Positions 19,758-39,600 of a stretch of DNA of 64,000 bases are shown here, one piece after another; the first letter of the stretch is position 1, and every line of letters begins with the position of its first letter. Under the pieces are notes generated by a model, which was not told the DNA's origin, made no database searches, and worked only from the letters and a program-made list of their open reading frames with translations. A program made the position numbers and the translations under genes. This stretch comes from a bacterium (lineage in GTDB: Bacteria > JAHJDO01), in NCBI GenBank assembly GCA_030652805.1, contig JAUSPT010000024.1, forward strand, positions 37,050-101,049, in the 5' to 3' direction.

Positions 19758-21455
19758 ATGGAAGCAAGAAAAACAGGAATTGATATTTTAGGCAATAAGC
19801 CCTGGGGTACACACTTCTGCCAATTTTACCAGACCAAAAATGATTTAATTGATATTCTGGTGCCGTATTTTAAAGCGGGATTAGAAAATAATGAATTTTG
19901 CATGTGGGTTACTTCAGAGCCTCTAAATGTTGAAGAAACAAAGGAATCGTTAAGAAAGGCTGTAAAAGACCTGGATAAGTATATCAAAAAAGGTCAGATA
20001 GAAATACTTGATTACAGCCAGTGGTATACCAAAGCAGGAAAATTCGAACAGGATAGGGTATTACAGGGCTGGGTCAAAAAGGAGAAGGAAGCCATAAAGA
20101 AAGGGTTTGACGGTCTCCGCCTCACAGGCAATACTTTCTGGCTTGAGAAAAAGGACTGGAAGAGTTTTGCTGATTATGAAGAAGTGGTAAACAATGTTAT
20201 AGGTAAATATAAAATGCTCGCAATCTGCACCTATTCCCTTGAAAAGTGCAATCTATTTAAAGTCCTGGATGTAGTCAAAAACCACCAATTCGCTCTCATA
20301 CAGCGTGCAGGTAAATGGGAGATTATTGAAAGCGCCGAGCTCAGGAAGGCGGAGGAGGAGCTAAGGGAAAACGAAGAGAAGTATCGAGACTTGTGGGAGA
20401 ACGTAAATGACCTTATTCAGAGCGTTAAACCAGATGGTACGTTTGTATATGTTAACCGTGCCTGGCGAGAAACTCTTGGGTATAATGAGAAAGAAATCCC
20501 AGATCTCTCGTTGTTGGATATCATTCATCCCGACAGTCATGCGCACTGTATGGAGATATTTAAGCGTTTGTTAGCTGGAGAAAAGGTCGAATACATTGAA
20601 GCTGCGTTCCTGGCCAAGGATGGCAAGACAATTATGGTCGAGGGAAGCGCAAACTGTCGCTTCGTAGATGGCAAGCCTGTTACTACACGCGCTATTTTCC
20701 GTGATGTCACCGAGCGCAAGAAGGTGGAGAAGAGGAAATCGGAATTTCTTTCTCATGTATCCCACGCCTTAAGGACACCCTTGGCTTCGATTAAATCCTT
20801 TGTAGAGATTCTCTTAAAGTACAAAGATGTGAATCCGACCGAACAAAGTGAGTTTCTGACTGTAATTAATAATGAAACTGACCGTTTAACTCGCCTGATA
20901 AATCAACTTTTAGATTTAGACAAGATAGAACAGGACGAGTTAAAATGGAAATTTGTGTCTTGTGATATCTCGAATATAGTTCAGAACGCAATTAGTGAGC
21001 TAGAGCCATTGATACAAGAAAAAAATATTGTAGTTAATATGAATCTTCCTTCTCAGGATTTGATTGTTAATGGAGATAAAGATAGATTAAATGAGGTGTT
21101 CATAAATCTAATAGGCAATGCAATTAAATTTACTCCTAGTAAGAGAGAGATTAGGATAACCGTTAAAAATAAAGGGAAAGTTGTCGAAGTCAGTATAGCT
21201 GATACAGGTATAGGAATACCCAAGGATGAGTTGACCAATATCTTTGAAAGGTTCAAGAGATTAGATAACTCCATTAATAGAAAGCTAACAGGAACAGGTT
21301 TGGGCTTATACATATGCAAGCAAATTATAGAAAAGCATGAAGGTAAGATTTGGGCTGAGAGCCATGGAAGTAAGGGTGCTAAATTTATTTTTGTCTTACC
21401 AAAGTATAAAGCTAAGTCAACTAAAAAGAGAATCGAACCCAAAAGAGGTTCATAG
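19758..21455 (+). CDS. sensor histidine kinase: MEDS domain - PAS - HisKA - HATPase_c
   Basis: N-terminal WGTHFCQFY (MEDS signature), PAS (VNRAWRETLGY), H-box FLSHVSHALRTPL, G-boxes DTGIGI/GTGLGL. Confidence 0.8.
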   Translation: MEARKTGIDILGNKPWGTHFCQFYQTKNDLIDILVPYFKAGLENNEFCMWVTSEPLNVEETKESLRKAVKDLDKYIKKGQIEILDYSQWYTKAGKFEQDRVLQGWVKKEKEAIKKGFDGLRLTGNTFWLEKKDWKSFADYEEVVNNVIGKYKMLAICTYSLEKCNLFKVLDVVKNHQFALIQRAGKWEIIESAELRKAEEELRENEEKYRDLWENVNDLIQSVKPDGTFVYVNRAWRETLGYNEKEIPDLSLLDIIHPDSHAHCMEIFKRLLAGEKVEYIEAAFLAKDGKTIMVEGSANCRFVDGKPVTTRAIFRDVTERKKVEKRKSEFLSHVSHALRTPLASIKSFVEILLKYKDVNPTEQSEFLTVINNETDRLTRLINQLLDLDKIEQDELKWKFVSCDISNIVQNAISELEPLIQEKNIVVNMNLPSQDLIVNGDKDRLNEVFINLIGNAIKFTPSKREIRITVKNKGKVVEVSIADTGIGIPKDELTNIFERFKRLDNSINRKLTGTGLGLYICKQIIEKHEGKIWAESHGSKGAKFIFVLPKYKAKSTKKRIEPKRGS

Positions 21456-21472: not shown

Positions 21473-22159
21473 ATGGCTAAGAGAACAATCTTAGTAGTTG
21501 ATGATGATCCTAATATCATTCAAGCGGTCTCTTTTGTTTTAAAAAAGGAAGGATATATAGTTACTACAGCTGTTGATGGAAAAGAAGCATTTAAAAAAGC
21601 TAAAGAAGAATTACCTCACCTAATTATTCTTGATGTTATGTTACCGAAACTGAGTGGATTTGAGGTCTGTAAACGATTAAAAGCTAATACTCAAACCAGA
21701 AAAATTCGTACTATTATGTTGACTGCTAGGAGTGAAGAAAAGGATAAAAGGTTGGGTGAGAAGTTAGGTGTGAATGCTTATATTACTAAACCTTATAATA
21801 TTGATGAGGTTCTATTTACAGTAAAGAGAGCTATAGAGAAAAAAGAATTACAGAGATCAATTGAAAAAATGAAAAAAGCAGCCTTGGTGGGGTATATGGG
21901 AGAGGCGATGTCTCATGAGATATTTAATCCTTTATCTGTTGTTTCTGGCTCCGTCCAACTTTTAATGAGCAGGATTAAAAAAGGCAAAAAGCTAACTACA
22001 AAAGAATATGAAGATTTCTTTAAAAATATTACTAAAAATGTAGAAAGGTGCATAGAGATTATAAATATTTTTAGGAAATTTTATGCATCTATAGGCATTG
22101 AGATTAAGCCTAGAAATTTAGAAGAAACGTTAAGGGATATATTGGAAGGCAAGATATGA
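21473..22159 (+). CDS. response regulator receiver with C-terminal HisKA-like dimerisation domain (no ATPase domain)
   Basis: ILVVDDDPN...LIILDVMLPKLSGFEV receiver; C-terminal EAMSHEIFNPLSVVSGSVQLL H-box-like. Confidence 0.7.
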   Translation: MAKRTILVVDDDPNIIQAVSFVLKKEGYIVTTAVDGKEAFKKAKEELPHLIILDVMLPKLSGFEVCKRLKANTQTRKIRTIMLTARSEEKDKRLGEKLGVNAYITKPYNIDEVLFTVKRAIEKKELQRSIEKMKKAALVGYMGEAMSHEIFNPLSVVSGSVQLLMSRIKKGKKLTTKEYEDFFKNITKNVERCIEIINIFRKFYASIGIEIKPRNLEETLRDILEGKI

Positions 22160-23229
22160 TTATGAGTAAAGAGTTTAGCAGAGCTCTGTTTGAGTACAAT
22201 CCTATTGAAACCGTAGTCGTGGATTTGGAAGGAAGAATAATCGACTTTAATCTGGCAAAAAAGAACTCAGGGGATAGATTGCCCAATATTGGGGATGGGA
22301 TGTACAAGGATTATGCAGCTCATCATGAGATTGACATGTATGCTGAATTGATAAAATGTATCAGAACAAGTAAGGTAAAAAAGTTTCCTGAGAAAAAATA
22401 TAAAAAGAGGTTTCTATCCATAACAATAGCTCCCTTTCCCAAAGGGGCAATTATAACATCTCTAGATGTCACCGAGCACAAGAAAGAGACAGAAATAGAG
22501 AGGAAAAGAGCTACAGAGGCGAAAAAGGATTATGAACAACTACAAGCCAATAAGGACGATTTGATTCGCTCCGAGAAACTTGCCTTTACCGGCCGCATAG
22601 CCGCAAATATTGCTCATGAGATAAGAAATCCCCTGACCAATGTAGCTATGGCAGTCCAGCAGCTTGGGAAAACCATTAAACAGGAAGGACACATTGCTAA
22701 ACATATGGACATCATTAAAAGAAACACAGAAAGGATTAACTATTTAATTACTGAACTCCTAAATTGTGCCCGCCCGCCAAAACTTAATATACAGCCATGT
22801 AATATTCATAAGGTATTAGAAGATATTTTAGAGTCCAACAAGACTAAGATTAGTTCAAAAAATATAAAGATAATTAAAAGGTTTACCTCTGACACATTCA
22901 TAATAAAGATTGATAAAGAACAAATGCAGCGTGCCTTCTTAAACATAGTCATCAATGCTATTGAAGCTATGCCCAAGAGAGGCAAATTGACCATTATTAC
23001 AGAGTTTAAGGGAAATCTTTTTGAGGTGAAGGTTCAAGATACAGGTAAAGGCATTCCTGAAGAAGATATTATCAGGATATTTGACCCTTTCTTTAGTTCC
23101 AAGTCCGGGGGTGTAGGCTTAGGATTGACTATATGTTATGGGATTATTGTGAGCCATGGCGGTACTATAGAGGTAGAAAGCAAGCCGAAAGAAGGGTCTA
23201 TCTTTATGGTATCTTTGCCAATTGGGTAA
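22156..23229 (+). CDS. sensor histidine kinase (PAS-like - HisKA - HATPase_c), cytoplasmic
   Basis: H-box IAHEIRNPLTNV, N-box, G-boxes DTGKGI/GVGLGL; start overlaps upstream stop (ATGA). Confidence 0.8.
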   Translation: MIMSKEFSRALFEYNPIETVVVDLEGRIIDFNLAKKNSGDRLPNIGDGMYKDYAAHHEIDMYAELIKCIRTSKVKKFPEKKYKKRFLSITIAPFPKGAIITSLDVTEHKKETEIERKRATEAKKDYEQLQANKDDLIRSEKLAFTGRIAANIAHEIRNPLTNVAMAVQQLGKTIKQEGHIAKHMDIIKRNTERINYLITELLNCARPPKLNIQPCNIHKVLEDILESNKTKISSKNIKIIKRFTSDTFIIKIDKEQMQRAFLNIVINAIEAMPKRGKLTIITEFKGNLFEVKVQDTGKGIPEEDIIRIFDPFFSSKSGGVGLGLTICYGIIVSHGGTIEVESKPKEGSIFMVSLPIG

Positions 23230-23439: not shown

Positions 23440-24048
23440 GTGGAAATAAAATATGATATTAGAAGAGGCGCAGATATATATCGGGCAATTTATGGAGCTC
23501 GATTACAGAAATGGATTCTTGCAGGTAAGATAAAGCGAGGAGAAGTAATTGTCTGGCGAAGCGGTCTTTCAGGCTGGCGCAAAGCCGAAGAACTTGAAGA
23601 ACTGGCGCCATTTTTTGAACAGTGGGAAAAAGAACAATTAAGAGAAACAAAGAGGCAAAAAGAGCAAGTCTTCTTAAGGAAGAAACAGAAGAAGATAAAG
23701 AATATTTTGATAATAGACGATGAGAAGGATTTGTGTTCGCTCCTGTCTGACGCCTTAATCCAGAGAAACTACAATGTATCGATTGCAAACACAAAAAGAG
23801 AAGCTATGGCTTATCTTAAAAAGAAATCACCTGATTTAGTTCTGTTAGACCTAAAACTACCTGATGGCGATGGAATAAAAATCCTTCCTAGGATCAAAAG
23901 GGTAAATCCAGAGACAGTAGTGATTGTAATTTCTGCCTATGGAAGCGAAGAAAGCAGACAAATGGCAAAAAAGGGAGGAGCTTTTACCTTTATAAACAAG
24001 CCGTTTACTGAAGAAGATATATTAAGGAGTATAAAAGTACTCTCATAA
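23440..24048 (+). CDS. response regulator: N-terminal DUF4339/GYF-like domain, K/E-rich linker, receiver domain
   Basis: GWRKAEELEELAPFF (DUF4339-like), then ILIIDDEKD...LLDLKLPDGDG receiver. Confidence 0.65.
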   Translation: MEIKYDIRRGADIYRAIYGARLQKWILAGKIKRGEVIVWRSGLSGWRKAEELEELAPFFEQWEKEQLRETKRQKEQVFLRKKQKKIKNILIIDDEKDLCSLLSDALIQRNYNVSIANTKREAMAYLKKKSPDLVLLDLKLPDGDGIKILPRIKRVNPETVVIVISAYGSEESRQMAKKGGAFTFINKPFTEEDILRSIKVLS

Positions 24049-24059: not shown

Positions 24060-25439
24060 ATGGAGACGATTCTAATAGTAGATGATGAGAAGGACTTGCG
24101 TTTTAATCTTTCCAACATTTTGAAGGACGAAGGTTACAACGCAATCGCTGTGGGAGACGGAAGGAAAGCGCTTAATGCAGTTAAGAAAAATTCTCCCAAT
24201 TTGGTCCTGCTGGATATGAAGCTTCCTGAAATGGATGGGATGCAGATTCTAGAGAAGATGAAGCTGATTGATAAGGATTTGATTATTATAATGCTTACTG
24301 CTTATGGAAATCTAAATGGAGCGGTAAAAGCAATGAAATTAGGGGCATTTGACTATCTTGCCAAGCCTTTTGATAATGAAGAATTAATTCTTGTAATAAA
24401 AAGGGCTCTTCGGACCCAATATTTAGCCAAGGAAGTAGAAACTCTAAAAAAACGGGTTGGTGAAAAAATTACAGCAGAAGAGCTAATGGGAGAAAGCCCT
24501 CAAATAAAGCAAGTCTTAAAACAGATTAAGATAATTGCTCCGACCAATATGACTGTAATACTTCAAGGTGAAAGCGGAACAGGCAAGGAATTGATTGCTC
24601 AGATGATCCATCAGGAAAGTCCGCGAAAAAATGACCCTTTTATTGCTATAGACTGTGGCGCAATTCCCGATACATTGGCTGAGAGTGAACTCTTTGGTCA
24701 TGAGAAAGGCGCCTTTACAGGAGCTGATGCTCAAAAAGAAGGCAGGTTTGAAGAGGCTAATGGAGGAACTCTGTTTCTGGATGAGATTACAAATCTCTCT
24801 TCTACTACGCAGAGAAAACTTCTCAGAGTGATACAGGAAAGAAGGCTTCAGCATATAGGCGGCAAGAGAAGTATAAAAGTTGACGTCAGAATAATCGTGG
24901 CTACGAACATTAATCTCTCAGGCGCGGTAAGGCGGGGTAAATTTAGAGAGGACCTCTTCCATAGGTTAAATGAATTTCATATTTCACTTCCCCCGCTTCG
25001 GGAAAGAAAAGATGACATCCCCCATTTAGCCATGCGTTTTTTGGGGGGAGGAAATCAGGAATTAAATAAAAAAATAGAAGGGTTTTCTTCTGATGTAATG
25101 AAATTGCTTCTGGATTATCCCTGGCCGGGCAATGTTAGAGAATTAAAGAATGTAGTCAGAAAAGCAGTGCTTCTGTGCGATTCCAATCATATCAAACCGG
25201 AACACTTTCCATTAGATAATATTGCTTCCACTAAAAAGCTTGAATTTCAGCAGGATTTGGATAAAGGAGTCTCCCTCAAAGAGATAACTAAAAAAGCGAC
25301 AGGACAGATAGAAAAGGAAGCTATTGAGCAAGCACTGGCAAAAGCCGGCGGCAATAAAAGTAAAACCGCCAAAATCCTCAAAATAGACCGCATGACCCTC
25401 TATTCTAAGATGAAGGAATATCAGATACGTAGACTGTAA
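24060..25439 (+). CDS. sigma54-dependent transcriptional activator, NtrC family (receiver - AAA+ - Fis-type HTH). Candidate gas-vesicle regulator, GvrA-like
   Basis: Receiver LLDMKLPEMDG; Walker A GESGTGKE; GAFTGA motif; ESELFGHEKGAFTGA; C-terminal HTH KTAKILKIDRMTLYSKMK; immediately upstream of a sigma54 promoter and gvpA. Confidence 0.9.
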   Translation: METILIVDDEKDLRFNLSNILKDEGYNAIAVGDGRKALNAVKKNSPNLVLLDMKLPEMDGMQILEKMKLIDKDLIIIMLTAYGNLNGAVKAMKLGAFDYLAKPFDNEELILVIKRALRTQYLAKEVETLKKRVGEKITAEELMGESPQIKQVLKQIKIIAPTNMTVILQGESGTGKELIAQMIHQESPRKNDPFIAIDCGAIPDTLAESELFGHEKGAFTGADAQKEGRFEEANGGTLFLDEITNLSSTTQRKLLRVIQERRLQHIGGKRSIKVDVRIIVATNINLSGAVRRGKFREDLFHRLNEFHISLPPLRERKDDIPHLAMRFLGGGNQELNKKIEGFSSDVMKLLLDYPWPGNVRELKNVVRKAVLLCDSNHIKPEHFPLDNIASTKKLEFQQDLDKGVSLKEITKKATGQIEKEAIEQALAKAGGNKSKTAKILKIDRMTLYSKMKEYQIRRL

Positions 25440-25511: not shown

Positions 25512-25529
25512 TGTAGAATAGAGTCTACA
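25512..25529. promoter_or_regulatory. palindromic upstream activator sequence candidate (TGTAGA-N6-TCTACA)
   Basis: Perfect 6-bp inverted repeat about 190 bp upstream of the -24 element; shares the half-site with the 25567 palindrome. Confidence 0.5.
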
Positions 25530-25566
25530 CTATATAAAGGAACACGTAGGGTTGTTGTAAAATAAA

Positions 25567-25584
25567 TTCTACACAGATGTAGAA
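25567..25584. promoter_or_regulatory. palindromic upstream activator sequence candidate (TTCTACA-CAGA-TGTAGAA)
   Basis: Perfect 7-bp inverted repeat about 120-135 bp upstream of the sigma54 -24/-12 element; typical bEBP enhancer distance. Confidence 0.55.
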
Positions 25585-25701
25585 ACAACTCTACGCTTTT
25601 TGCCTTTAAATTTCCTCTGCTTTTAAGCTCCTCAGAATTCTTTCAAAAGATATTTTTAAAAAAGAGGATACGCAAGCCGAAATTTTTTTTAGCAGATACT
25701 T

Positions 25702-25717
25702 TGGCACGGAATTTGCT
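25702..25717 (+). promoter_or_regulatory. sigma54 (RpoN) -24/-12 promoter of gvpA
   Basis: TGGCACGgaatTTGCt. Exact match to TGGCACG-N4-TTGCW with correct GG/GC spacing; about 113 bp upstream of gvpA ATG; NtrC-type activator encoded immediately upstream. Confidence 0.8.
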
Positions 25718-25830
25718 TTTACAATACAGATGGTCGCAGATGAAAAATCGCAGATGGGTACAGATGTTCAATCTGCGCTGGTCTGTGAAAATAATCTGCG
25801 CTAATCTGTGAAAGAGGGGAGGTGGAAAAA

Positions 25831-26037
25831 ATGGCAGTAGAAAAAGCAATCGGTTCATCTAGTTTGGTTGAGGTTATTGACAGAATCCTTGACAAGGGTG
25901 TTGTGGTTGATGCATGGGTTAGAATTTCTTTAGTTGGTATTGAATTACTCGCTATTGAAGCAAGAGTCGTAGTCGCATCAGTCGAGACATACCTGAAGTA
26001 TGCTGAAGCAATTGGTCTAACCGCAACAGCAGCTTAA
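25831..26037 (+). CDS. gvpA: gas vesicle structural protein GvpA
   Basis: [60 protein letters not shown]. Near-identical to the canonical GvpA core; AGGTGG RBS before ATG 25831 (ORF track starts at upstream GTG). Confidence 0.95.
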
Positions 26038-26226
26038 GTATAGTTTAAAAAAAGGATTCTTGCCGAGCCACCCTTTTGAGCGCAGATTGGCGCAGATGTA
26101 AAAGACAGATGCACACAGAGAAATCTGTGATAATCAGCGTAAAAAAATCAGTGTTAATCTGTGGTTTAAACAGCATGGTTCGCCAAGAGATTCCTTTTTC
26201 CGTTCTGAGAAAAAAGGGGTAAAATT

Positions 26227-26925
26227 ATGGGAAGTGCCGAGGAAATGAAGAATTTGGCGCAAGGAATTGTTTCTTCTTATCAGGCCAGAGTTTCTGAAGT
26301 AGCCACGGTCATGGACAATGCTCACCAAATTCTTGAAGATTTTAAGCTCAAAAGAAGTGAGATGAGCAGTCAACTTAGAGAAACCCTTGCCAATGGAGAG
26401 TCTCTCAGAAAAAAGGATTTTGATAATATGATGAAAGGCATCCTTTCCCATCAAGAAGAAAGAGAAAAAGAGGTAAAAGATTTATTAAAGACTTTTTTTG
26501 AAGAACAAAAAGAAATAGCTGAAGCCATTAGGAAGAATTTGGCCGAAGGCGAAAGCGTGAGAATAAGTGATTTTAAAAAGATGCTCCAGGATATTCAGGC
26601 AAGGCAGAAACTCAGGGAAAATGAAGTAAGAACGACCCTAAAGGAATTTCAGGAAGGACATAGGGAGATGGCTGAGTCTTTGCACAGCCTTTTAAATAAA
26701 GAAGAGTCCTTACGGATTGAGGACTTTAAAGAGATGCTAAAAGATATTCGTTCAAGACAGATAGAGCGGAAAAAAGAAGTCAGAACCAAACTTGATGAAT
26801 TCAGGAAAGAACATCAAAATATGACTTCCGAATGGAATAAACTAACCGGTCTTATGGCCGAGAAAAGAGCCAGCAAGCTGAGAGGAGGTGAGAGAGAGGA
26901 AAAGTTGGAAGTTGCCAGGGTTTAA
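26227..26925 (+). CDS. tandem-repeat coiled-coil protein, candidate GvpC-like gas vesicle scaffold/strengthening protein
   Basis: Three ~50-aa repeats of pattern L..GES.R..DFK.ML.DI..RQ..RE.EVR..L.EF...H..M; hydrophilic, predicted all-helical; directly downstream of gvpA as gvpC is in cyanobacteria. Confidence 0.5.
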   Translation: MGSAEEMKNLAQGIVSSYQARVSEVATVMDNAHQILEDFKLKRSEMSSQLRETLANGESLRKKDFDNMMKGILSHQEEREKEVKDLLKTFFEEQKEIAEAIRKNLAEGESVRISDFKKMLQDIQARQKLRENEVRTTLKEFQEGHREMAESLHSLLNKEESLRIEDFKEMLKDIRSRQIERKKEVRTKLDEFRKEHQNMTSEWNKLTGLMAEKRASKLRGGEREEKLEVARV

Positions 26926-26995
26926 TTTTGGATCCTGGGTAAGTAACCTGATGTATGGGAACTAAGAAACTAGAAGTTTAAGAGGAGGAATAAAG

Positions 26996-28027
26996 ATGGG
27001 AATAGCAAGTGATATCAAAGCACTGGGTGAGGACATTGTTGCCTCTTATGATACGCGAGTAAGGGCGATAGGTGTGCTTGTCAAGGACGTCGACAAAATG
27101 CTTAAGGGTCTTCATACGGATCATAAGAGTATGGCTGCCAATCTTAAAGCTGGCCTTAACAAGGGAGAAGAAGATAGGCTCAATGCCTTTAAGCCAATGA
27201 TAGCAGAAATTCAGAAGCGGACAAAGGAAATAGAAGTCTATGTTAAAACTCTGCTCAAAAAGTTTCACAGCGAGCATATGGAAATGTCTGCCAATCTTAA
27301 TGCCTCTCTTGCAAAAGGAGAAGAGGATCGACTTAAGGACTTTAGAGCAATGATGGCTGATGTTAAGAAGTTTGTAGCGGATATGGTTGATACGACTGCG
27401 AAACTGATGAAGCAAATTCAGGCTGAACAGAAAGATAGAAATAAAGGAGTAGCTGATCTCCTTGCAAAGTTTGCGCAAGACCATGCATCTATGGCAGATG
27501 AGCTTAGAAAAAGCCTTGCAAAAGGAGAAACAAACAGGCTTGAAGACTTCAAAAAGATGATAGATAGTATCCAAAAATATGTGGCTGATGTAATTAGTGC
27601 GACTAAGCAGCTAATTAGCGAAATTCAAGCAAGGCAGGATGAGAGAAACAAAGAGGTTCTTGCTCTCTTACAGGCATTCCAGGCCGAAAGAGAAAAGATG
27701 GCTGCTAACTGGCAGGCTCTGGCTGCAACAATGGAGAAGAGAAGAGGCGGTAAGCCGATTCCAGTTAAAGTAGAAGCCAGGCAGGAAGTAAAGACTGTTG
27801 AAGAGGCAGTGAAAGAAAAACCCAAAGCTAAACCTAAGGCTGGGCCTAAACCCAAAACACCTGAAGGTCAGATATTAGCTTTGCTTAGGGAGCATGCTGA
27901 AGGCATGAGCTTGCCGAATTTAGGAAATGAAGCAGGCTGCCACTTTATAAAGCTGACCAGTCCAATGAGAGGTCTGCTGGATAAAGGCAAAGTTAGAAAA
28001 GAAGATAATCTTTACTTTATTGCTTAG
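26996..28027 (+). CDS. tandem-repeat coiled-coil protein (paralog of 26227 gene) with K/P-rich linker and C-terminal winged-helix-like domain
   Basis: Repeats ...SLAKGEEDRLKDF.AMM.D..K.V.D...; KPKAKPKAGPKPKTPEG linker; C-terminal ILALLREHAEGMSLPNL... Confidence 0.5.
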   Translation: MGIASDIKALGEDIVASYDTRVRAIGVLVKDVDKMLKGLHTDHKSMAANLKAGLNKGEEDRLNAFKPMIAEIQKRTKEIEVYVKTLLKKFHSEHMEMSANLNASLAKGEEDRLKDFRAMMADVKKFVADMVDTTAKLMKQIQAEQKDRNKGVADLLAKFAQDHASMADELRKSLAKGETNRLEDFKKMIDSIQKYVADVISATKQLISEIQARQDERNKEVLALLQAFQAEREKMAANWQALAATMEKRRGGKPIPVKVEARQEVKTVEEAVKEKPKAKPKAGPKPKTPEGQILALLREHAEGMSLPNLGNEAGCHFIKLTSPMRGLLDKGKVRKEDNLYFIA

Positions 28028-28043
28028 TGAATGGAGGTGAAAG

Positions 28044-28364
28044 ATGAGCGAGATAAAATGTGCTTTCTGCAAAGGCACGGGCAAGGATCCATTTGATCTT
28101 CTATCCGAGCTTGCTGTCTGCCAGGTTTGCGGAGGCAGGGGTAAAGTTGAGGTAAAAGAGCCGGCAATCAAGTGTGTCTTTTGTAGCAGCACCGGTATCT
28201 ATCCTCGTAGTCGAGTTACCTGCACTGTATGTAATGGCAAAGGAATGGTTGCGGTTAAAGGCGCGACTGACGAGTGCCCTAAGTGCAAAGGCACAGGCAG
28301 AGCAATAGATAGCGGACTTCCCTGCATTAAATGTGGAGGCAAAGGGGTCGTTTCAAAAAAATGA
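28044..28364 (+). CDS. DnaJ-type cysteine-rich zinc-finger (CxxCxGxG repeat) protein
   Basis: Six CxxC(x)GxG motifs (CAFCKGTG, CQVCGGRG, CVFCSSTG, CTVCNGKG, CPKCKGTG, CIKCGGKG), as in DnaJ CR domain. Confidence 0.7.
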   Translation: MSEIKCAFCKGTGKDPFDLLSELAVCQVCGGRGKVEVKEPAIKCVFCSSTGIYPRSRVTCTVCNGKGMVAVKGATDECPKCKGTGRAIDSGLPCIKCGGKGVVSKK

Positions 28365-28546
28365 CTGAATTAAACTCCTCCAGGGAAGACTTTCTTAGAA
28401 AAAGAAAGGAAGCGTTAGATAAGTTGAGTTCCTGCCGGGAAGGTTTTAGAAGGAAGGAGAAGAGAATAAAAGCGGATTTGGCAGAGGCGGGCAAGACTTG
28501 GGAGAAAGTGAGCCAAAAGTTCAAGTGGTGGCAGTCTCTGCCCTAG
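28361..28546 (+). CDS. small basic hypothetical protein
   Basis: ATG overlapping upstream stop (ATGA); MTELNSSREDFLRKRKEALDKL...; no recognisable domain. Confidence 0.3.
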   Translation: MTELNSSREDFLRKRKEALDKLSSCREGFRRKEKRIKADLAEAGKTWEKVSQKFKWWQSLP

Positions 28547-28586
28547 AGGAAAAGAAAACAAAAATCAAAAAAGGAGGTAAGATAAG

Positions 28587-29507
28587 ATGGCAGCTGTTGA
28601 GGAGATGACCACAGTACTTGAACCAAGTCCTTTATCAGACTTTGTGGAAACAAAGTATGTGAAGGATGTCACTAATCGGACACTTTCCTATATTAAGGCC
28701 GGTTTTCCGGTCCATTTTCGAGGTCCTTCAGGGACAGGAAAGACCACTCTGGCTATGCATGTAGCCAGTAAGGTTAAAAGGCCGGTGGTAATGATTCACG
28801 GGGATGAAGAGTTTACAACCTCTGATTTGGTGGGTGGTGAACATGGCTACAGGTTTAGAAAGGTTGTAGACAGATTTGTCTCCAGGGTGTTGAAAGTGGA
28901 AGAAGATATGGTAAAGCGCTGGGTGGATAACCGTTTAACGGTTGCCTGTAAGTATGGTTTTACCCTTATCTATGATGAATTCACACGTTCCCGTCCTGAG
29001 GCAAACAATATTCTTCTCTCTATTTTGCAGGAGAAGATGATGGATCTGCCAGTGGGAAGAGGCGGAGAAGAACCGTATTTAAAGGTTGACCCTGATTTTA
29101 CCGCTATTTTCACATCAAACCCTGAGGAATATGCCGGAGTTCATCGGAGTCAGGACGCTCTTAGGGACAGAATGATAACCATGGATTTGGACCATTTTGA
29201 TTATGATACGGAAATAGGTATTACCAGGGCAAAATCCAAACTCTCTAAACAAGATTCTGAGAGGATAGTTAATATTGTAAGAGGATTGAGGGAATCAGGA
29301 AAGTGTGAGTATGCACCAACCGTACGCGGCTGTATTATGATTGCTAAGACGCTTAAAGTTCTGGGCACTGCTCCTGCTAAGAGTAATGGTTCCTTCAGCG
29401 CGATGTGTCAGGACATATTGGCTTCTGAGACCAGTAGAGTTGGCTCAAAGACGAATCAGGACAGGGTAAAGGGGATAGTTAAGGAGTTGGTTAAGAAATA
29501 TAGTTAA
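28587..29507 (+). CDS. gvpN: gas vesicle protein GvpN (AAA+ ATPase)
   Basis: Walker A GPSGTGKTTLAMHVA, Walker B LIYDEF; length and position typical of GvpN (CbbQ/NirQ-like AAA+). Confidence 0.88.
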   Translation: MAAVEEMTTVLEPSPLSDFVETKYVKDVTNRTLSYIKAGFPVHFRGPSGTGKTTLAMHVASKVKRPVVMIHGDEEFTTSDLVGGEHGYRFRKVVDRFVSRVLKVEEDMVKRWVDNRLTVACKYGFTLIYDEFTRSRPEANNILLSILQEKMMDLPVGRGGEEPYLKVDPDFTAIFTSNPEEYAGVHRSQDALRDRMITMDLDHFDYDTEIGITRAKSKLSKQDSERIVNIVRGLRESGKCEYAPTVRGCIMIAKTLKVLGTAPAKSNGSFSAMCQDILASETSRVGSKTNQDRVKGIVKELVKKYS

Positions 29508-29585
29508 AAGACAGAGGGCAGAAGGCAGAAAGCAGAAAAATCTGCTCTCAGAAATCTGGTTTCTGAATAAGAGAGGAGAAAGAAA

Positions 29586-29756
29586 ATGACACTGATGAGG
29601 ACGTTTTCTAAAGTGGAAAAAGATGGGAAGATAAAACTTCCCGGTAATATTCAGCGAGCAGCAGGTCTTAAAGAAGGCCAGTTGATTGAGCTGAAGATTG
29701 TAGGAGCAAGCAGGAAGAAGAATATCTTGCTCTCGGCTAAAGATAGCGCAAGATAG
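29586..29756 (+). CDS. AbrB/MazE/SpoVT-type swapped-hairpin DNA-binding protein (56 aa; not in ORF track)
   Basis: MTLMRTFSKVEKDGKIKLPGNIQRAAGLKEGQLIELKIVGASRKK. Classic AbrB-N pattern (KVxxxGxIxIPxxIRxxLGIxxGDxV); preceded by TCAGAAA-TCTGG-TTTCTGA palindrome and GAGAGGAGAAAGAAAATG RBS. Confidence 0.5.
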   Translation: MTLMRTFSKVEKDGKIKLPGNIQRAAGLKEGQLIELKIVGASRKKNILLSAKDSAR

Positions 29757-29791
29757 GTCTGTAAGTTTCTCACATTATAAGGGAGAGAACA

Positions 29792-30127
29792 ATGAAGGAT
29801 GTTAATAGTCTGCCGGGACTCCATAAGTTGAGGACTATGTTTAGTGCCAAGAAGAGGTCCATACCAAAGGTTCAAAGCTCGGGTTATTTAGATTTGTATA
29901 TGCTCGGGAAAGAGAAAGAGAGACTCCTGAAGGAAGATGAGAGGCTGGATATGAGAAAAGACACTCTCAAGAAGCGCCTGGAGGAGATAGACCTGGAGAT
30001 GAATCAACTACAGGAGGTCTCGAAAAGCGGGATTAAATCTGCTCCGGACATAGGTTTTTCAGGAGGCACTTTCACGCAGAAAAATGGAGTCAAAAAAGAG
30101 TGGAAAAAGATGTCTTTAAATTATTAA
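29792..30127 (+). CDS. hypothetical protein (gvp-locus accessory)
   Basis: ORF with coiled-coil central region; no recognisable motif. Confidence 0.4.
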   Translation: MKDVNSLPGLHKLRTMFSAKKRSIPKVQSSGYLDLYMLGKEKERLLKEDERLDMRKDTLKKRLEEIDLEMNQLQEVSKSGIKSAPDIGFSGGTFTQKNGVKKEWKKMSLNY

Positions 30128-30148
30128 CAACTGCATAGGTGGTTGAGA

Positions 30149-30541
30149 ATGAATTGGAACACATTTGACTTTAAAAGCGGGAAAAGCGGAAGAACCAGGT
30201 CAGGACGAAGGATAGGTGAGATTTTGGAAGGGGATAAGTTTAGATGTTCATTATGCAGAGGCACAGGGATATTACCCCGAACCAAGGGCACAAGATGTCA
30301 TGTATGTAAAGGCTCAGGCATAGTTTCCTTAACCGGACCGGCAGTAGTATGCGCTTACTGCAAAGGCAGAGGCGATTATCCGCCGAGGACAAGTCTTACC
30401 TGTACGGTTTGCGGAGGGAAGGGTTTAGTTAGCATTACCAAACCCATTGAAATATGCGAACATTGCCGGGGAACCGGTGCTGAGCCGGGCAATAAACTAC
30501 CTTGCTTAAAATGCAAAGGTAAGGGTGTGATTACAAAATAG
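30149..30541 (+). CDS. DnaJ-type cysteine-rich zinc-finger protein (paralog 2)
   Basis: CSLCRGTG, CHVCKGSG, CAYCKGRG, CTVCGGKG, CEHCRGTG, CLKCKGKG; AGGTGG RBS, ATG at 30149. Confidence 0.7.
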   Translation: MNWNTFDFKSGKSGRTRSGRRIGEILEGDKFRCSLCRGTGILPRTKGTRCHVCKGSGIVSLTGPAVVCAYCKGRGDYPPRTSLTCTVCGGKGLVSITKPIEICEHCRGTGAEPGNKLPCLKCKGKGVITK

Positions 30542-30558
30542 AAATCGGGAGAGAGACT

Positions 30559-30816
30559 ATGAAAATAGAAGAAGTAGAGAAGGCGATCACAGATTTCTTT
30601 AAGAGCAGTCTTGGTGGAAAGGCAAAAGTAATAAAGATAGTAAAATCTCAGGATGGCTGGACAGGTGAGGCAGAGATTTATGAGGAGAGTTCATTTATTA
30701 AATCTTTAGGACTATCTACCAGAGTTCAGGATAGGAATATTTACGGGATTAAATTGACTGATGCCTTGGAAGTGGTCTCTTACGCGCGAAAAGAGGGATC
30801 TGTAAAAGAGGAATAA
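30559..30816 (+). CDS. GvpO/GvpR-like gas vesicle protein
   Basis: DGWTGEAEIYEESSFIKSLGLSTRVQDRNIYGIKLTDALEVVSYARKE resembles GvpO core (GW.A.VEVVER...DTQD..GRYE..LD...V.GY.R.RR). Confidence 0.55.
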   Translation: MKIEEVEKAITDFFKSSLGGKAKVIKIVKSQDGWTGEAEIYEESSFIKSLGLSTRVQDRNIYGIKLTDALEVVSYARKEGSVKEE

Positions 30817-30831
30817 AAATAAGGAGCAATT

Positions 30832-31128
30832 ATGACTAATAAAATGGCTCATGCTACTGAGGCGACGAATCTTGCGGATATTTTAGAAAGGGTTCTGGAT
30901 AAGGGGATAGTTATTGCCGGGGATATTAAGATCCAAATTGCCGACATTGATCTTCTCACTATCAAAATAAGGCTGTTGGTTGCCTCTGTGGATAAGGCAA
31001 TGGAGATGGGGATAAATTGGTGGCAGCAGGATTCTTATCTTTCTTCTGAAGCAAAAGAGAAAGAAATAGAGAACGAAAATAAATCCTTAAAAAAGAGATT
31101 AGAACGGTTAGAAGCGAAGATAAAATAA
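30832..31128 (+). CDS. gvpJ: GvpA-family minor gas vesicle protein (GvpJ/GvpM-like)
   Basis: ANLADILERVLDKGIVIAGDIKIQIADIDLLTIKIRLLVASVDKAMEMG, GvpA fold with extended C-terminus. Confidence 0.85.
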   Translation: MTNKMAHATEATNLADILERVLDKGIVIAGDIKIQIADIDLLTIKIRLLVASVDKAMEMGINWWQQDSYLSSEAKEKEIENENKSLKKRLERLEAKIK

Positions 31129-31132
31129 AGAA

Positions 31133-31441
31133 ATGACCAGTATGGAGCGTGAGACTTTAGATGTTATTGCTGAAAATGAGGAGAGAGTCCATTATTACTT
31201 AATAGCTCAGGAATTAAAGGTAAGCGCTCATTATGCCTATGTGATTTGCAAAGGGCTTGAGAGAGACAAATATGTTGATTTTGATACATTTAAAGGAGTA
31301 TGCAGCTTAACAGAAAAAGGTAAAGAAACAGTGGAAGAGAATTGGCTTTTTAAACTTAAGCAGCAAAAGCAGAATATTCAGAAGAGAAGAAAAGAAAATA
31401 AGGGAAAAATTTCTAAGAATGTTGAGGTTGTAAATTATTAA
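31133..31441 (+). CDS. small winged-helix DNA-binding protein (MarR/ArsR-like)
   Basis: LDVIAENEERVHYYLIAQELKVSAHYAYVICKGLERDKYV. HTH + wing pattern; basic C-terminus. Confidence 0.5.
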   Translation: MTSMERETLDVIAENEERVHYYLIAQELKVSAHYAYVICKGLERDKYVDFDTFKGVCSLTEKGKETVEENWLFKLKQQKQNIQKRRKENKGKISKNVEVVNY

Positions 31442-31444
31442 GAC

Positions 31445-31657
31445 GTGAGTATAACAGCTACAGAATTAGAAATACTAAGAATTATAAAAAAGAAAAACGG
31501 TTTAATATCTATGAAAGAGTTAAGCAGTAAAGCAGGGTTTGAGATAGGCTATACCTACATGTTGTGCAAGTCCCTGGAAAAGCAGGATTGTATTGGGTTT
31601 TTTACCCATTCATCTTGTAGAATAACTGCAACAGGCAAAGGTCTGATAAGCGAATAG
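31445..31657 (+). CDS. small winged-helix DNA-binding protein (paralog)
   Basis: ELEILRIIKKKNGLISMKELSSKAGFEIGYTYMLCKSLEKQDCI. Same HTH pattern as the 31133 gene. Confidence 0.5.
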   Translation: MSITATELEILRIIKKKNGLISMKELSSKAGFEIGYTYMLCKSLEKQDCIGFFTHSSCRITATGKGLISE

Positions 31658-31666
31658 GAGGTCGAA

Positions 31667-32053
31667 ATGAGCTGGCAAACAATGGAGTGGAATAAACAAA
31701 AGATCGGGCGCAGAGGAGAGATTTTAACCAGGGATGTCTACAGATGCGGTTTTTGTAGAGGCACAGGTCTCCTTTCTTCTAAAAAGGGGATAAAATGTCC
31801 TGTTTGTTTAGGTAATGGAGAGGCAAAGGTTTCATCTCCGGCTGTAATTTGCGCTTATTGCAATGGAACGGGAAAAAGACATCCTCGAACTACCCTCACC
31901 TGTACTGTTTGCCGAGGAAAGGGTGTTGTGAGCGTGGGAACTTCTGATATTGAAGCTTGTCCTACTTGCAAAGGAATAGGCAGGGAACGCGGCAGGACTC
32001 TTCCCTGTTTAACCTGCAAAGGGACAGGCGTTATTCCTAAAAAGAAGAGATAA
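31667..32053 (+). CDS. DnaJ-type cysteine-rich zinc-finger protein (paralog 3)
   Basis: CGFCRGTG, CPVCLGNG, CAYCNGTG, CTVCRGKG, CPTCKGIG, CLTCKGTG. Confidence 0.7.
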   Translation: MSWQTMEWNKQKIGRRGEILTRDVYRCGFCRGTGLLSSKKGIKCPVCLGNGEAKVSSPAVICAYCNGTGKRHPRTTLTCTVCRGKGVVSVGTSDIEACPTCKGIGRERGRTLPCLTCKGTGVIPKKKR

Positions 32054-32085
32054 TATTTTAGTATTAAATGTACAGGGAGAAAAAA

Positions 32086-32604
32086 ATGGCTAAAGAAAAG
32101 AAAAAAAATGAAGAAGCGGTAGGTTTTGATTTTGGCATTGGTGGGCTGTTTAAAGGTATTGAGAAATTAGTTGACCTGGCAGCAGATTTAAAAGAGGCCG
32201 GAGGGGAGATTAAGAAAGAAGGCGAAATAGACCTGAGCCATCTTAAGAAAGGGATGAAGGGAGTATTTGGATTTTCTGTAAAAAGCGCGGTGGGAGGAAA
32301 ACCAACAGTTGAGACATTCGGCCACAAAATTAAGAAGACCCCTGAAGGTCCCACGGTTGAAGAAGAGAGAGAGCCTATCATAGATGTATTTGATGAAAAA
32401 GAAGAGATCCGAGTCTATGCTGAGATGCCGGGGGTAAATGACGAGTCTATATCGGTTGATTTAAAAGGGGATATATTAGAAATAACAGCTGTAAGTAAGG
32501 ATAGAAAATACCGCAAGGAAATTTTGCTTCCTGCTAAAGTTGAATCTAAAACTTTAGAGAGGAGTTTTAAAAACGGTATCTTAGAAATAAAAATAAAGAA
32601 ATGA
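32086..32604 (+). CDS. gvpH: Hsp20/alpha-crystallin-domain protein, GvpH-like
   Basis: C-terminal ACD: IDVFDEKEEIRVYAEMPGVNDESISVDLKGDILEITAV...ERSFKNGILEIKIKK; RBS AGGGAG before ATG 32086 (ORF track starts at 32068). Confidence 0.75.
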   Translation: MAKEKKKNEEAVGFDFGIGGLFKGIEKLVDLAADLKEAGGEIKKEGEIDLSHLKKGMKGVFGFSVKSAVGGKPTVETFGHKIKKTPEGPTVEEEREPIIDVFDEKEEIRVYAEMPGVNDESISVDLKGDILEITAVSKDRKYRKEILLPAKVESKTLERSFKNGILEIKIKK

Positions 32605-32607
32605 TAT

Positions 32608-33543
32608 ATGGCATTAACAGGATTAAGAGAAGATGCGTTAAAACTGGTTTTATTTGGAGGGAAGGGCGGCGTAGGAAAGACAACCTGTGCATCAAGCACA
32701 GGCTTTTATTTAGCAAAGAATTTCAGGACATTGCTTTTTTCAACAGACCCGGCACATTCGCTCTCTGATAGTTTAGAGCAGGACATTGGCAGTAACATAA
32801 TAGAGGTGAAAGGGACAAAAAACTTGAGTGCTTTTGAAGTAAGCGCAGAAAAAGCTCTTTCTAGATTCAAGATAGAACATGAAGACCAGATAAAAAAGAT
32901 TTTGGATACCTCTACCTATTTAGATGAGGAAGACATTGATTCCATCTTTGATTTGCCTATTCCCGGGATGGATGAAGTGATGGGGTTCAAGACAATTGTT
33001 GATTTAATAGAGGAAGCTAAGTTTGACAAGTACATTGTAGATACCGCGCCTAGCGGTCATGCGATGAGACTTCTGACTTTACCTGACCTGCTGGATGACT
33101 GGGTCAAGGTTATGGCAAAGATGAGATGGAAGTATAGATATATGGTGGAAAGATTTGGCGGAAGATATAATCCTGACGAAGGCGATGATTTCTTATTAAC
33201 TATGAAAAAGACCGTAAAGAGAATAGAAAATCTTCTTAAGGATCAAAAAAGGTGTGAATTTATAGCAGTTACCATTCCGGAAGATATGGCAATTTTAGAA
33301 ACCGGGAGAATGATAAATAATTTGAACGACTATGGCATAAAAGTGAGGCAATTAGTAATAAATAATGTTGTAGAATCGCAGGATTGCGGATTTTGTAGAG
33401 AAAGAAGAAAAGGGCAGGAGAAACATATAAACAGGATAATGAAAAAGTTTGATGACTTAAAAATAACAATTGTCCCTTTGCAATCAAGGGAGGTTAAAGG
33501 TATAGATACCTTGAATAATTTTAAAGAGATGCTATTTCAATAA
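32608..33543 (+). CDS. ArsA/Get3-family P-loop ATPase (single ATPase domain)
   Basis: Deviant Walker [11 protein letters not shown]; ArsA/Get3 signature [12 protein letters not shown] (cf. DTAPTGHTLRLL); [11 protein letters not shown]. Confidence 0.75.
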
Positions 33544-35711
33544 TGGGAAAAAAGAACTCAGCTCTTACACTTAAAGTAAAAGAAGCTCTGCCAAAGGATG
33601 CAGGAAGGGCTATCGCCAGGATTGACCCGGAAGATATGAAAACTCTTGGAATAGAAGTGGGCGAGGTTGTAGAGATTGACGGTAAAAGAAAAACTCCTGT
33701 CAAAGCAATGCCATCTTACGTAGAAGATAGAGGGAAAAAGACTATTCAAATGGATGGAATATCCAGAGAGAATGCGCAGATTGGACTGGATGAAAAGGTA
33801 AAGATCAGCAAGATTGACTATAAGTCTGCTAACAAAATCACACTCTCGCCTCTAACTGCATCAAGTCTGCTTCAAAGAGATAAAGATACCAGATATATCG
33901 GGTCGCTTATGGAGGGGCTTCCTGTAACCAGCGGCGATAGGATTAGAGCTACGCTTTTTGGCTCAAGATCCTGCGATTTTAAGGTGCTGGATACTATTCC
34001 TGCGGGTGTAGTTTTAATAAACCAGACTACTTCAATAAAGATGAAGACAAAGGGAGCAGAAAAAGAGAGGTCAGCCAAAGTTTCATATGAAGATATTGGC
34101 GGGCTTGATAAGCCAATCCAAAGAATCAGGGAGATGATAGAGCTTCCTTTAAAATATCCTCAAGTATTTGAAAGATTAGGAATTGATCCGCCGAAAGGCG
34201 TTTTTCTCCATGGTCCTCCGGGTTGTGGAAAAACCTTAATCGCTCGGGCCGTGGCTAATGAAACAGATGCTTATTTTACCAGCATAAGCGGACCGGAAAT
34301 TATGGGGAAGTTTTATGGGGAGAGCGAAGCTCGCCTCCGTTCCATATTTGAAGATGCTCAGGCACATGCGCCTGCTATCATATTTTTGGATGAGATTGAA
34401 TCTATTGCTCCAAAAAGAGAAGATATGGGCGCTGAAAAACAGGTTGAGCGAAGAGTAGTAGCTCAGCTTCTGGCTCTGATGGATGGATTAGAATCAAGGG
34501 GACATGTTGTTGTTATAGCTGCAACCAATTTGCCTAATACAGTTGATCCGGCTTTGAGACGGCCAGGCCGTTTTGACAGAGAATTATCTATCCCTATTCC
34601 GGATAAAAATGGGCGATTAGAAATTTTACAGATACATACAAGAGGAATGCCTTTGGCAGAAGATGTGAGTTTAGAGAGATTAGCTGAGATTACTCATGGA
34701 TTTGTGGGCGCGGATTTAGAATCATTAGCAAGAGAAGCAGCAATGTCAGCGTTAAGAAAGATTTTGCCTAAGATAGATTTTGAATTAGCGGAGATACCTT
34801 ATGAGACTCTTTTAGAATTGCAGGTTACTATGGACAATTTTTTGGAGGCATTGAAAGAAATAGAGCCTTCTGCTATCCGCGAGGTATTTGTTGAGATTCC
34901 TGATGTCCGGTGGGATGAGGTTGGTGGATTAGATGAAATAAAGAAGTCTTTAATTGAAGCCGTGGAATGGCCTCTTAAATACAGCAGATTATTTGAGCAC
35001 GTCAAAACAGAGCCGCCTACAGGCATTTTGCTCTCCGGTTCTCCGGGTACGGGAAAGACTTTGGTAGCCAAAGCATTAGCTACTGAGAGCGGGGTTAATT
35101 TTATTTCTGTTAAAGGCCCTGAGATTATAAGTAAGTATGTGGGTGAGTCAGAACGCGCTGTCCGTGAGATATTTAAAAAGGCAAGAATGGCTGCTCCATG
35201 TATTTTATTCCTGGATGAAATAGACAGTCTGGTTCCTACACGCGGAAGCGCTGGAGGGGATTCACAGGTAACCGAGAGAGTGATCAGCCAATTTCTTACC
35301 GAACTTGGAGGGATAGAGAGATTAAAGGGCGTAGTAGTGATTGGTGCGACCAATAGATTAGATATGATAGACACCGCAGTATCAAGGGCGGGAAGGTTTG
35401 ATATCCATTTAAACTTTCCATTACCTGATAAAAAGACAAGACTCAGAATTTTTGAAATTCATGCTAAAGACAAACCATTAGATAAAGATGTAAATTTAGA
35501 AAAATTAGCAGATCAAATAGAAGAATATTCCGGAGCAGATATTGAAGCTGTTTGCCGTCGCGCGTCTATGCTTGCTATAAGAGGATATATAGAAAATCAA
35601 AAGGCAAAAAGCAAAGATCAAAAATTAGAACTCAAGATATCAAAGAGCAATTTTGAAGAAGCTATTAGTTTACTAAAAGAACAGAAGAACGAAATAAAGG
35701 GGGGTGGTTAA
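33543..35711 (+). CDS. CDC48/VCP-like AAA+ ATPase (N-domain + D1 + D2)
   Basis: CDC48-N-like start; two AAA modules with Walker A GPPGCGKT and GSPGTGKT, Walker [20 protein letters not shown] regions; archaeal/eukaryotic-type architecture. Confidence 0.85.
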
Positions 35712-35712
35712 A

Positions 35713-35847
35713 ATGGCAGGGATTATTGAGAAAATTAAAAACTTTTTTAGCAGCATGTGTATATGCAAAGTTAAGAAGGAAAAAGAAGAACCTAAACTGC
35801 AACAGGAAGAGCCTAAGGTAGAGGAAAAACCTGAAGAACAAAAATAA
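35713..35847 (+). CDS. small protein with K/E/P-rich tail (44 aa; not in ORF track)
   Basis: MAGIIEKIKNFFSSMCICKVKKEKEEPKLQQEEPKVEEKPEEQK; tail resembles that of the 14209 gene product; AAGG..GGTGG RBS. Confidence 0.3.
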   Translation: MAGIIEKIKNFFSSMCICKVKKEKEEPKLQQEEPKVEEKPEEQK

Positions 35848-35862
35848 TAAACAAGGTGTAAA

Positions 35863-36867: not shown

Positions 36868-36874
36868 TAGGAAT

Positions 36875-37645: not shown

Positions 37646-37646
37646 G

Positions 37647-38414: not shown

Positions 38415-38653
38415 TGTTTTTAATTGATGATATATTCCTTGCGCCATTGAAAGGGGTGGTTTGGCTTGGCAAGAAGATGAATGAGGTTATAGAGAAGGAA
38501 ATCTCTGATGAAGGGCGGATAAAAGAGAAACTTATGGAATTACAAATGCAGTTTGAACTTGATGAAATAAACGATGAAGAATATAAGAAGCAGGAAGAAG
38601 AACTTTTAGCGCGATTGGACGCTATTAGAAAAGCAAAAGAAGAGGAGGTGTGA
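38414..38653 (+). CDS. gvpG: gas vesicle protein GvpG
   Basis: MFLIDDIFLAPLKGVVWLGKKM... typical GvpG N-terminus; ATG overlaps upstream TAA. Confidence 0.8.
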   Translation: MFLIDDIFLAPLKGVVWLGKKMNEVIEKEISDEGRIKEKLMELQMQFELDEINDEEYKKQEEELLARLDAIRKAKEEEV

Positions 38654-39597: not shown

Positions 39598-39600
39598 CAT

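Follow-up and report, generated by a model that had tools for sequence, protein, structure and literature searches.

The classical enhancer of sigma-54-dependent transcription, that of NtrC at glnAp2, is built of inverted-repeat dimer sites located more than 100 bp upstream, several of them on one face of the helix, and promoter opening is driven by ATP. In gas vesicle clusters this type of control was shown experimentally for Serratia sp. ATCC 39006: the start of gvpA1 transcription, mapped by 5' rapid amplification of cDNA ends, lies downstream of a sigma-54 consensus, and gvpA1 is transcribed only with the help of the NtrC-like protein GvrA, with GvrB and GvrC also required; several Proteobacteria are reported to have operons headed by gvrA in their gas vesicle clusters (PMC4982088). 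In this contribution, we describe a locus from an uncultivated bacterial lineage near Omnitrophota in which the gas vesicle gene gvpA is preceded by a -24/-12 element, a group of upstream inverted repeats and the gene of an NtrC-type activator. The locus lies within a 64,000-nucleotide stretch of contig JAUSPT010000024.1, referred to below as the window. A preceding analysis that used the letters of this DNA only (the sequence-only reading) had pointed, correctly, to the Serratia precedent and had proposed that gvpA is sigma-54-dependent and driven from upstream sites by the adjacent regulator. The observation is confirmed, in that all sequence features which it listed lie where it had placed them or within a base or two. 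The proposal is supported by the same arrangement in 17 related loci, by the intact motifs of the activator and by the lack of a sigma-70-like promoter on the plus strand next to gvpA. We consider it very probable that a sigma-54 promoter for gvpA, with the adjacent activator acting from three upstream sites, is the best explanation of the locus.

The promoter element, TGGCACGGAATTTGCT at positions 25702-25717 of the plus strand, is the sole exact match to TGGCAC-N5-TTGC on both strands of the window. With the stricter pattern TGGCACG-N4-TTGCW it was again the only exact match, with 0.01 matches expected from shuffled sequences; the exact RpoN consensus claimed for this position is therefore present and unique, and a consensus scan, proposed earlier as a check, returns it alone. 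In the interval from 19 to 41.8 kb, no other intergenic plus-strand element has the GG and GC pairs intact and no more than two mismatches. The gas vesicle cluster has no second sigma-54-like element and no further sigma-54 promoter was found in the window; matches with one mismatch at 15749 and 52528 were rejected, since both lie inside coding open reading frames (ORFs) and their number equals the chance expectation. The element is oriented toward gvpA and an intergenic gap of 114 nt separates its end from the gvpA ATG (25831), while the stop codon of the activator gene (25439) is 263 bp away on the other side, in agreement with the earlier estimates of about 113 and 262 bp. From the position of the element, transcription is predicted to start at about 25728. 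No sigma-70-like promoter was called on the plus strand between 25300 and 26300 with a sigma-70 consensus that may not be the one of the host. An alternative gvpA start, the GTG at 25822 present in the ORF list, is disfavoured because gvpA homologues in relatives were called with a length of 68 amino acids (aa). An independent Logan assembly (L010) is identical to the region over 2889 nt, and thus the region is not an assembly artefact.

The putative enhancer consists of three 18-bp sites of the form TGTAGA-N6-TCTACA. When the whole window was scanned with TGTAGA-N6-TCTAC, allowing at most one mismatch, eight strand-hits were obtained against 0.76 expected, and six of the eight are the three sites. 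They begin 190, 146 and 124 bp ahead of the -24 element, their centres are separated by 44 and 22 bp, i.e., by four and two helical turns, and a repeat search returned the same three copies. The sites are thus dyad-symmetric, multiple, spaced by whole turns and located within the range of about 80-200 bp from the -24/-12 element that is usual for enhancers. The sequence-only reading had noticed two perfect palindromes with TGTAGA/TCTACA half-sites at about -120 and about -190. Both palindromes exist, but the count of two sites was wrong: the second palindrome, TTCTACA-CAGA-TGTAGAA (25567-25584), is the junction at which the right half of site 2 abuts the left half of site 3. The two positions are right as distances to the -24 element but not as distances to the predicted transcription start, relative to which the three site centres are listed in Table 1. 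As a binding unit the junction palindrome was rejected, because the isolated site 1 has only the N6 form and this form is shared by all loci.

The activator encoded just upstream has intact motifs throughout. Its receiver domain (PF00072, E 3.5e-31) contains DD at residues 8-9 and LDM at residues 51-53, with D52 as the phospho-acceptor; its AAA+ domain (PF00158, E 6.9e-71) contains Walker A GESGTGKE at 170, GAFTGA at 217 and Walker B LFLDE at 238; and its C-terminal Fis-type helix-turn-helix (HTH; PF02954, E 1.8e-15) contains RMTLYSK at 444. None of the NCBIfam equivalog cut-offs (AtoC, NtrC, ZraR, NtrX, LuxO and others) is reached by the protein, whose best score is 469 bits with AtoC against a cut-off of 714, and it is therefore not an orthologue of a named regulator. 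The closest relatives with solved structures are the Aquifex NtrC-family regulators (PDB 4L4U, 1NY5 and 3DZD). No other NtrC-type activator was found in the window.

The arrangement is conserved well beyond this genome. The nearest relatives of the activator are 97, 95, 89 and 88% identical to it, and a large further set, several members of which are labelled Omnitrophota, is 65-73% identical. In 17 distinct related loci with activators of 59-97% identity, many of them from Omnitrophota, the order is activator, sites, -24/-12 element and gvpA throughout, and gvpA follows the activator on every contig that was fetched. The element lies 155-318 nt past the activator stop in L001-L009 (activators 97-69% identical) and in L036, L039, L041, L046, L049, L054, L056, L084 and L087 (59-67%); the distance is 632 nt in one locus, where a gene was inserted. 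The exact TGGCAC-N5-TTGC core is found in L001, L002/3, L004/5, L007, L008 and L009, and L006 has AGGCAC. Nine further loci, in which an activator of 59-67% identity lies upstream, came from a scan of metagenomes with GvpA, and the element is present in all nine (five exact, four with one mismatch). It is thus present in 17 of 17 distinct loci, and the core is exact in 12 related loci, or in 13 of 17 when the window is counted, and has one mismatch in the other four. Upstream sites precede the element in every locus except L042. A scripted scan placed sites of the TGTAGA type about 125-190 bp before the element in the L001-L009 loci; sites 2 and 3 form a conserved double site of about 40 bp, found in L001-L009, L036, L049, L056 and L084, and the position of site 1 is also occupied in L001 and L004 (perfect) and in L002 (one mismatch). 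In alignments the promoter and the half-sites survive where the rest of the spacer has diverged, and the 6-nt spacer inside the sites varies freely. One or two small genes, receiver-only and mechanosensitive (MS) channel-like, stand between the activator and gvpA in L006, L007 and L009, and the promoter stays at the activator end, ahead of them. The first gene behind the promoter in these loci is the receiver-only gene, sometimes accompanied by the MS-channel-like one (L006 2261-3621, L007 6784-7179, L009 6708-7845); it resembles the gvrC-like receiver gene directly 5' of gvpA in Methylocella (L021 13373-13780).

The type of site changes together with the DNA-recognition helix of the activator. 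Double sites of the TGTAGA type, [TGTArr-N6-TCTACA]-N4-[yGTAGA-N6-yyTACA], go with the recognition helix KIDR(M/T)(T/S)LYSK. In a sister group (L039, L041, L046, L054 and L087; activators 59-66% identical), the TGTAGA dyads are replaced by direct repeats of TGTCCC spaced by about 11 nt, and in the four of these loci with a readable C-terminus (L039, L041, L046 and L054) the helix reads K(T)(L/F)YRK, with YRK in place of YSK. Another dyad, TGGAAAAA-N-TTCCA, is present in L044. This co-variation of site and helix is the strongest argument at hand for the adjacent activator as the protein that would bind these sites.

Table 1. Features of the gvpA regulatory region and its surroundings (positions in the window; site centres are relative to the predicted transcription start at about 25728)
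Feature	Position	Strand	Details
MEDS-PAS histidine kinase (distal sensor)	19758..21455	+	Not conserved in relatives
REC-HisKA protein without ATPase domain	21473..22159	+	Not conserved in relatives
Cytoplasmic histidine kinase, HisKA-HATPase	22156..23229	+	357 aa; likely cognate kinase
GYF_2 + receiver-only regulator	23440..24048	+	202 aa; directly 5' of the activator in most relatives
NtrC-type response regulator (activator)	24060..25439	+	459 aa, MDO9463954.1; REC, AAA+ sigma-54 interaction, AAA lid, Fis-type HTH_8
Putative enhancer site 1	25512..25529	.	TGTAGA-ATAGAG-TCTACA; perfect, isolated, 0 expected by chance; centre about -207
Putative enhancer site 2	25556..25573	.	TGTAAA-ATAAAT-TCTACA; one mismatch; centre about -163
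Putative enhancer site 3	25578..25595	.	TGTAGA-AACAAC-TCTACG; one mismatch; centre about -141; 22 bp from site 2, 66 bp from site 1
Enhancer-promoter spacer	25596..25701	.	70% A+T; conserved among the four closest loci
sigma-54 -24/-12 promoter	25702..25717	+	TGGCACG-GAAT-TTGCT; GG 25703-04, GC 25715-16; start predicted at about 25727-25729
5' leader palindrome	25726..25810	+	About 85 nt (82-85), four CAGAT units per arm; dG -39 kcal/mol, z -6.0
gvpA	25831..26037	+	68 aa; Pfam PF00741, E 2e-16; Shine-Dalgarno GAGGGGAGGTGG at 25814-25825
Long stem-loop directly 3' of gvpA	26053..26200	+	Base conserved across the clade; no T-run after it
Co-directional gas vesicle cluster	26227..40605	+	gvpN, two gvpJ/M-like, three gvpF/L, gvpG, gvpO, Hsp20-like, ArsA-like and CDC48-like ATPases, CXXCXGXG zinc-finger proteins

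These features suggest the following course of events. The neighbouring two-component proteins would phosphorylate D52 of the activator, and the phosphorylated activator would bind as dimers at the three sites, which lie on the same face of the helix 124-190 bp before the -24 element. Three dimers make six protomers, i.e., one AAA+ hexamer could be assembled on the three sites. The A+T-rich spacer would then loop, and the hexamer, using ATP and its GAFTGA loops, would open the closed sigma-54 complex near 25728. The promoter would be silent alone and turned on only with the phosphorylated activator, and gvpA, together with probably much of the co-directional cluster, would be transcribed from the element at 25702-25717. 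The transcript would begin in a long 5' hairpin and carry a second long hairpin 3' of gvpA; the two probably stabilize the gvpA segment and cut read-through, and the major structural protein would benefit from this.

Several observations weigh against this reading. No rpoN gene was found in the window by tblastn, and a protein search returned many RpoN sequences from Omnitrophota, none of which is labelled as coming from this metagenome-assembled genome. The start site and the activator dependence of gvpA are predictions, and the assignment of the sites to this activator draws on adjacency and co-variation. No terminator was called 3' of the activator end at 25439, and read-through from the activator operon is therefore possible. 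The inner half-sites of the double site are the best conserved ones, which would allow a TCTACA-N4-TGTAGA unit, yet such a unit fails to explain site 1. The spacer (25596-25701) contains no match to WATCAANNNNTTR, the pattern of an integration host factor (IHF) site, at up to one mismatch, and no sign of an intrinsic bend, as neither a 10-11 bp AA/TT periodicity nor phased A-tracts are present in it; an IHF site or a bend at this place is frequent in such enhancers but not obligatory, and looping would here need intrinsic flexibility or another protein. With regard to rpoN, a scan of genome contigs returned only close relatives of the query, which was taken from L008, and distant Firmicutes. 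The protein search shows that RpoN is common in Omnitrophota; the L008 locus, which is from this group, has a full rpoN (Sigma54_AID, CBD and DBD) at 413-1726 on the minus strand, about 3 kb upstream of the cassette, and the RpoN P0164 is probably encoded on the same 848,437-bp contig as the L007 locus.

If the -24/-12 match were not used at all, gvpA would owe its expression to transcripts reading through out of the two-component operon or to an unrecognized promoter of another sigma factor. The lack of a terminator after the activator gene, the absence of rpoN from the window and the possibly foreign sigma-70 consensus used in the promoter scan all speak for this explanation, but it has to accommodate an exact 12-position consensus that is expected 0.01 times in the window and is nevertheless kept in 17 of 17 loci amid diverging DNA. 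In addition, no sigma-70-like site was found on the plus strand of the scanned interval, and an activator with an intact GAFTGA motif has no known function without sigma-54. We therefore give this explanation very little credence.

It is somewhat less far-fetched, though still improbable, that the sigma-54 promoter is real and that the TGTAGA-N6-TCTACA sites are bound by some other protein (another enhancer-binding protein, a repressor or an anti-activator), the adjacent regulator serving other targets. Occupancy of the sites by the adjacent activator is a prediction, the genome is incomplete and the finding of a single activator gene applies to the window, and the distal sensor genes differ among relatives. 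Against these points, the activator gene is contiguous with the sites in all of the 17 distinct loci, the site type changes with the recognition helix, and the sites are located at the classical enhancer distance of 100-200 bp. Finally, the palindromes could be structural elements of the upstream operon at the RNA or DNA level (for instance a terminator, a site of processing or what is left of a mobile element), and not enhancers. Mobile palindromic elements do occur in the same intergenic region (the CAGAT repeats described below and a copy that carries a GxxExxY gene in L002). However, the stems of the TGTAGA sites are only 6 bp long and A+T-rich, no T-run follows them and no plus-strand terminator was called; conserved half-sites around a free 6-nt spacer are the signature of a protein site and not of a hairpin, and the sites are spaced in whole helical turns. 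Among the explanations considered, this one appears to us the least plausible.

The preferred reading, activation of a sigma-54 promoter by the adjacent regulator, includes a source of phosphate among the genes that precede the activator. The sequence-only reading had described a five-gene two-component cascade at 19758-25439. All five genes do encode two-component proteins, but only the proximal three, the core of kinase, GYF-receiver and activator, are conserved in relatives, and the distal sensors differ in every one of them, so the input signal probably varies. A kinase at the same position is kept in L001, L002, L004/L005, L007, L008 and L009, i.e., in the relatives for which the upstream flank was captured, a set that does not include L006 and the truncated loci. 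The gene of the REC-HisKA protein overlaps the start of the HisKA-HATPase kinase gene by 4 nt (21473-23229), and this pair may represent a split hybrid kinase or a step of a phosphorelay. In two loci a gene of an IclR-type regulator is found just 5' of the kinase (L007 1990-2802, L008 2006-2818).

Downstream of gvpA, the gas vesicle cluster is probably co-transcribed, at least partly, from the gvpA promoter. Its accessory set comprises three small proteins with DnaJ-type CXXCXGXG zinc-finger repeats, an ArsA-like ATPase, a CDC48-like double AAA ATPase and a fusion of GvpF/L with a J-domain (28044-28364, 30143-30541, 31667-32053, 32608-35711 and 35863-36867), which points to a system of chaperones devoted to the assembly of vesicles.

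The gvpA gene itself is flanked by two unusual palindromes. In the RNA, the leader palindrome would fold into a hairpin from the predicted 5' terminus onward, and the ribosome-binding site would stay outside this hairpin. The leader palindrome is genome-specific: in relatives its place is taken by a minimal hairpin of about 30 nt, and both palindrome positions have short hairpins only. The apex of the stem-loop 3' of gvpA (26079-26165) is replaced here by a second CAGAT palindrome, which is colinear with the leader copy and about 70% identical to it, and the four occurrences of CAGAT-N5-CAGAT in the window all belong to the two palindromes. The base of the 3' stem-loop reads GGrTTCTTGCCGrG.CA.CCTT ... 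AAAGCATGG.t.GCCAAGArATTCC, and the hairpin at its apex differs among loci with activators of only about 70% identity; counterparts were found in L001 (4258-4330) and L008 (6867-6935). The 3' stem-loop is not in Rfam, and tRNAs are the only known RNA families in the window. Its function may be that of an attenuator or of a site for processing.

In L002, from a 95% related genome, CAGAT-type units form inverted arms of about 50 nt around an inserted gene of the GxxExxY (PDDEXK_3) nuclease family (7366-7823, about 460 bp). Small ORFs, for four-helix-bundle (S23p) or GxxExxY proteins, are likewise carried by hairpin elements of the 23S rRNA intervening-sequence type. This element resembles Coxiella's 23S rRNA intervening sequence (IVS) in size (428 nt) and layout (PMC4990558). 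Unlike the IVS, the CAGAT elements are located not in rRNA but in a gas vesicle operon, within hairpins of its mRNA leader and of an intergenic region. Judging by architecture and shared repeat units, the palindromes of the window look like ORF-less copies of the L002 hairpin element, similar to miniature inverted-repeat transposable elements or to an IVS, that entered the loops of pre-existing hairpins. A different insertion is seen in L001 (1910-2338) and L002 (5538-5966), where the gene of a four-helix-bundle '23S rRNA intervening sequence protein' (TIGR02436), absent from the window, lies between the receiver and activator genes and is bracketed by 40-nt A+T-rich inverted repeats. That the palindromes stabilize or process gvpA mRNA is speculation. 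A joint reading can be imagined in which the palindromes would be ORF-less, IVS-like selfish elements co-opted so that gvpA is cut out or stabilized as a separate RNA with a long life, and in which the path from kinase, GYF-receiver and activator through a three-dimer enhancer and sigma-54 to gvpA would be a buoyancy switch assembled independently across Omnitrophota-like bacteria; taken as a whole we find it unlikely. If true, it would place a post-transcriptional amplifier for the most abundant structural protein on top of the sigma-54 switch.

Sigma-54 elements are also found in front of other gvpA genes. Of 73 other metagenomic gvpA loci whose upstream sequence was long enough, 16 carry such an element at a distance of 86-119 nt from the ATG, with 0.1 expected. 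On a plasmid of Methylocella tundrae, where the genes are ordered in a Serratia-like mix as activator, GvpF, kinase-like protein, receiver and gvpA, TGGCTCCGTTCTTGC is present about 90 nt before the gvpA ATG (L021 13895-13909). These findings suggest that sigma-54 control of gvpA is widespread, beyond Serratia and Proteobacteria. A special kinship of the window activator with the activators of proteobacterial gas vesicle clusters was considered and rejected for want of a signal above the family background: the activator is 43% identical to that of the Methylocella cluster (343 bits), and its score with Aquifex NtrC1 is 346 bits. About one third of the other gvpA loci share a leader motif, GAGG-N4-CCGTC-CCTC-N5-10-AAG(C)ACGG, 55-67 nt before the ATG (L066 1451-1488, L088 2436-2473, L024 981-1019, L099 2433-2476 and about 20 other metagenome loci). 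The motif can be drawn as an H-type pseudoknot, with weak covariation (one clearly covarying pair) and no Rfam match at E<=1; its covariance model gave nothing credible in the window.

The literature searches turned up no paper that deals with the regulation of gas vesicles in Omnitrophota. The locus described here offers a wiring diagram for the control of buoyancy in an uncultivated lineage near this group, comprising a promoter, three operator sites, a cognate activator and a likely kinase, in which the binding and phosphorylation steps are predicted. Since a sigma-54 promoter gives no transcripts unless its activator is present, gas vesicles are probably made here only on a specific signal. 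The cassette of activator, enhancer and promoter, about 1.8 kb in length, could serve as a tight switch for engineered gas vesicle clusters used as acoustic reporters. The general understanding of sigma-54 or of gas vesicle regulation is not changed by these findings: sigma-54/NtrC-like control of gvpA is already known from Serratia, and what is new here is a different gene layout and an operator sequence of its own.

As in Serratia, an NtrC-family activator is encoded in the gas vesicle locus and a -24/-12 consensus is located upstream of gvpA, here known from the DNA sequence. Serratia also needs the kinase-like and receiver proteins GvrB and GvrC, and kinase and receiver genes are present beside the activator gene in the window. 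The layouts are different. In Serratia, gvrA heads a second operon together with gvpH/Z/F2/F3 and gvrB/C; the window lacks this two-operon layout, and its regulatory genes are located directly 5' of gvpA, in the same direction, with no gvp genes among them. The upstream sites of the window were defined by comparison of loci, and none are described in the cited Serratia work (PMC4982088); the host, too, is an uncultivated lineage near Omnitrophota and not a Serratia. The architecture of the activator, REC-AAA+(GAFTGA)-Fis-HTH, and the upstream inverted-repeat sites, presumably for dimers, are those of the NtrC/glnAp2 system and of the Aquifex regulators (4L4U, 1NY5 and 3DZD). The window differs from NtrC/glnAp2 in the sequence of its sites, in the target regulon and in that no IHF site was found, and, compared to that classical enhancer, its three sites would correspond to the exact stoichiometry of a hexamer.

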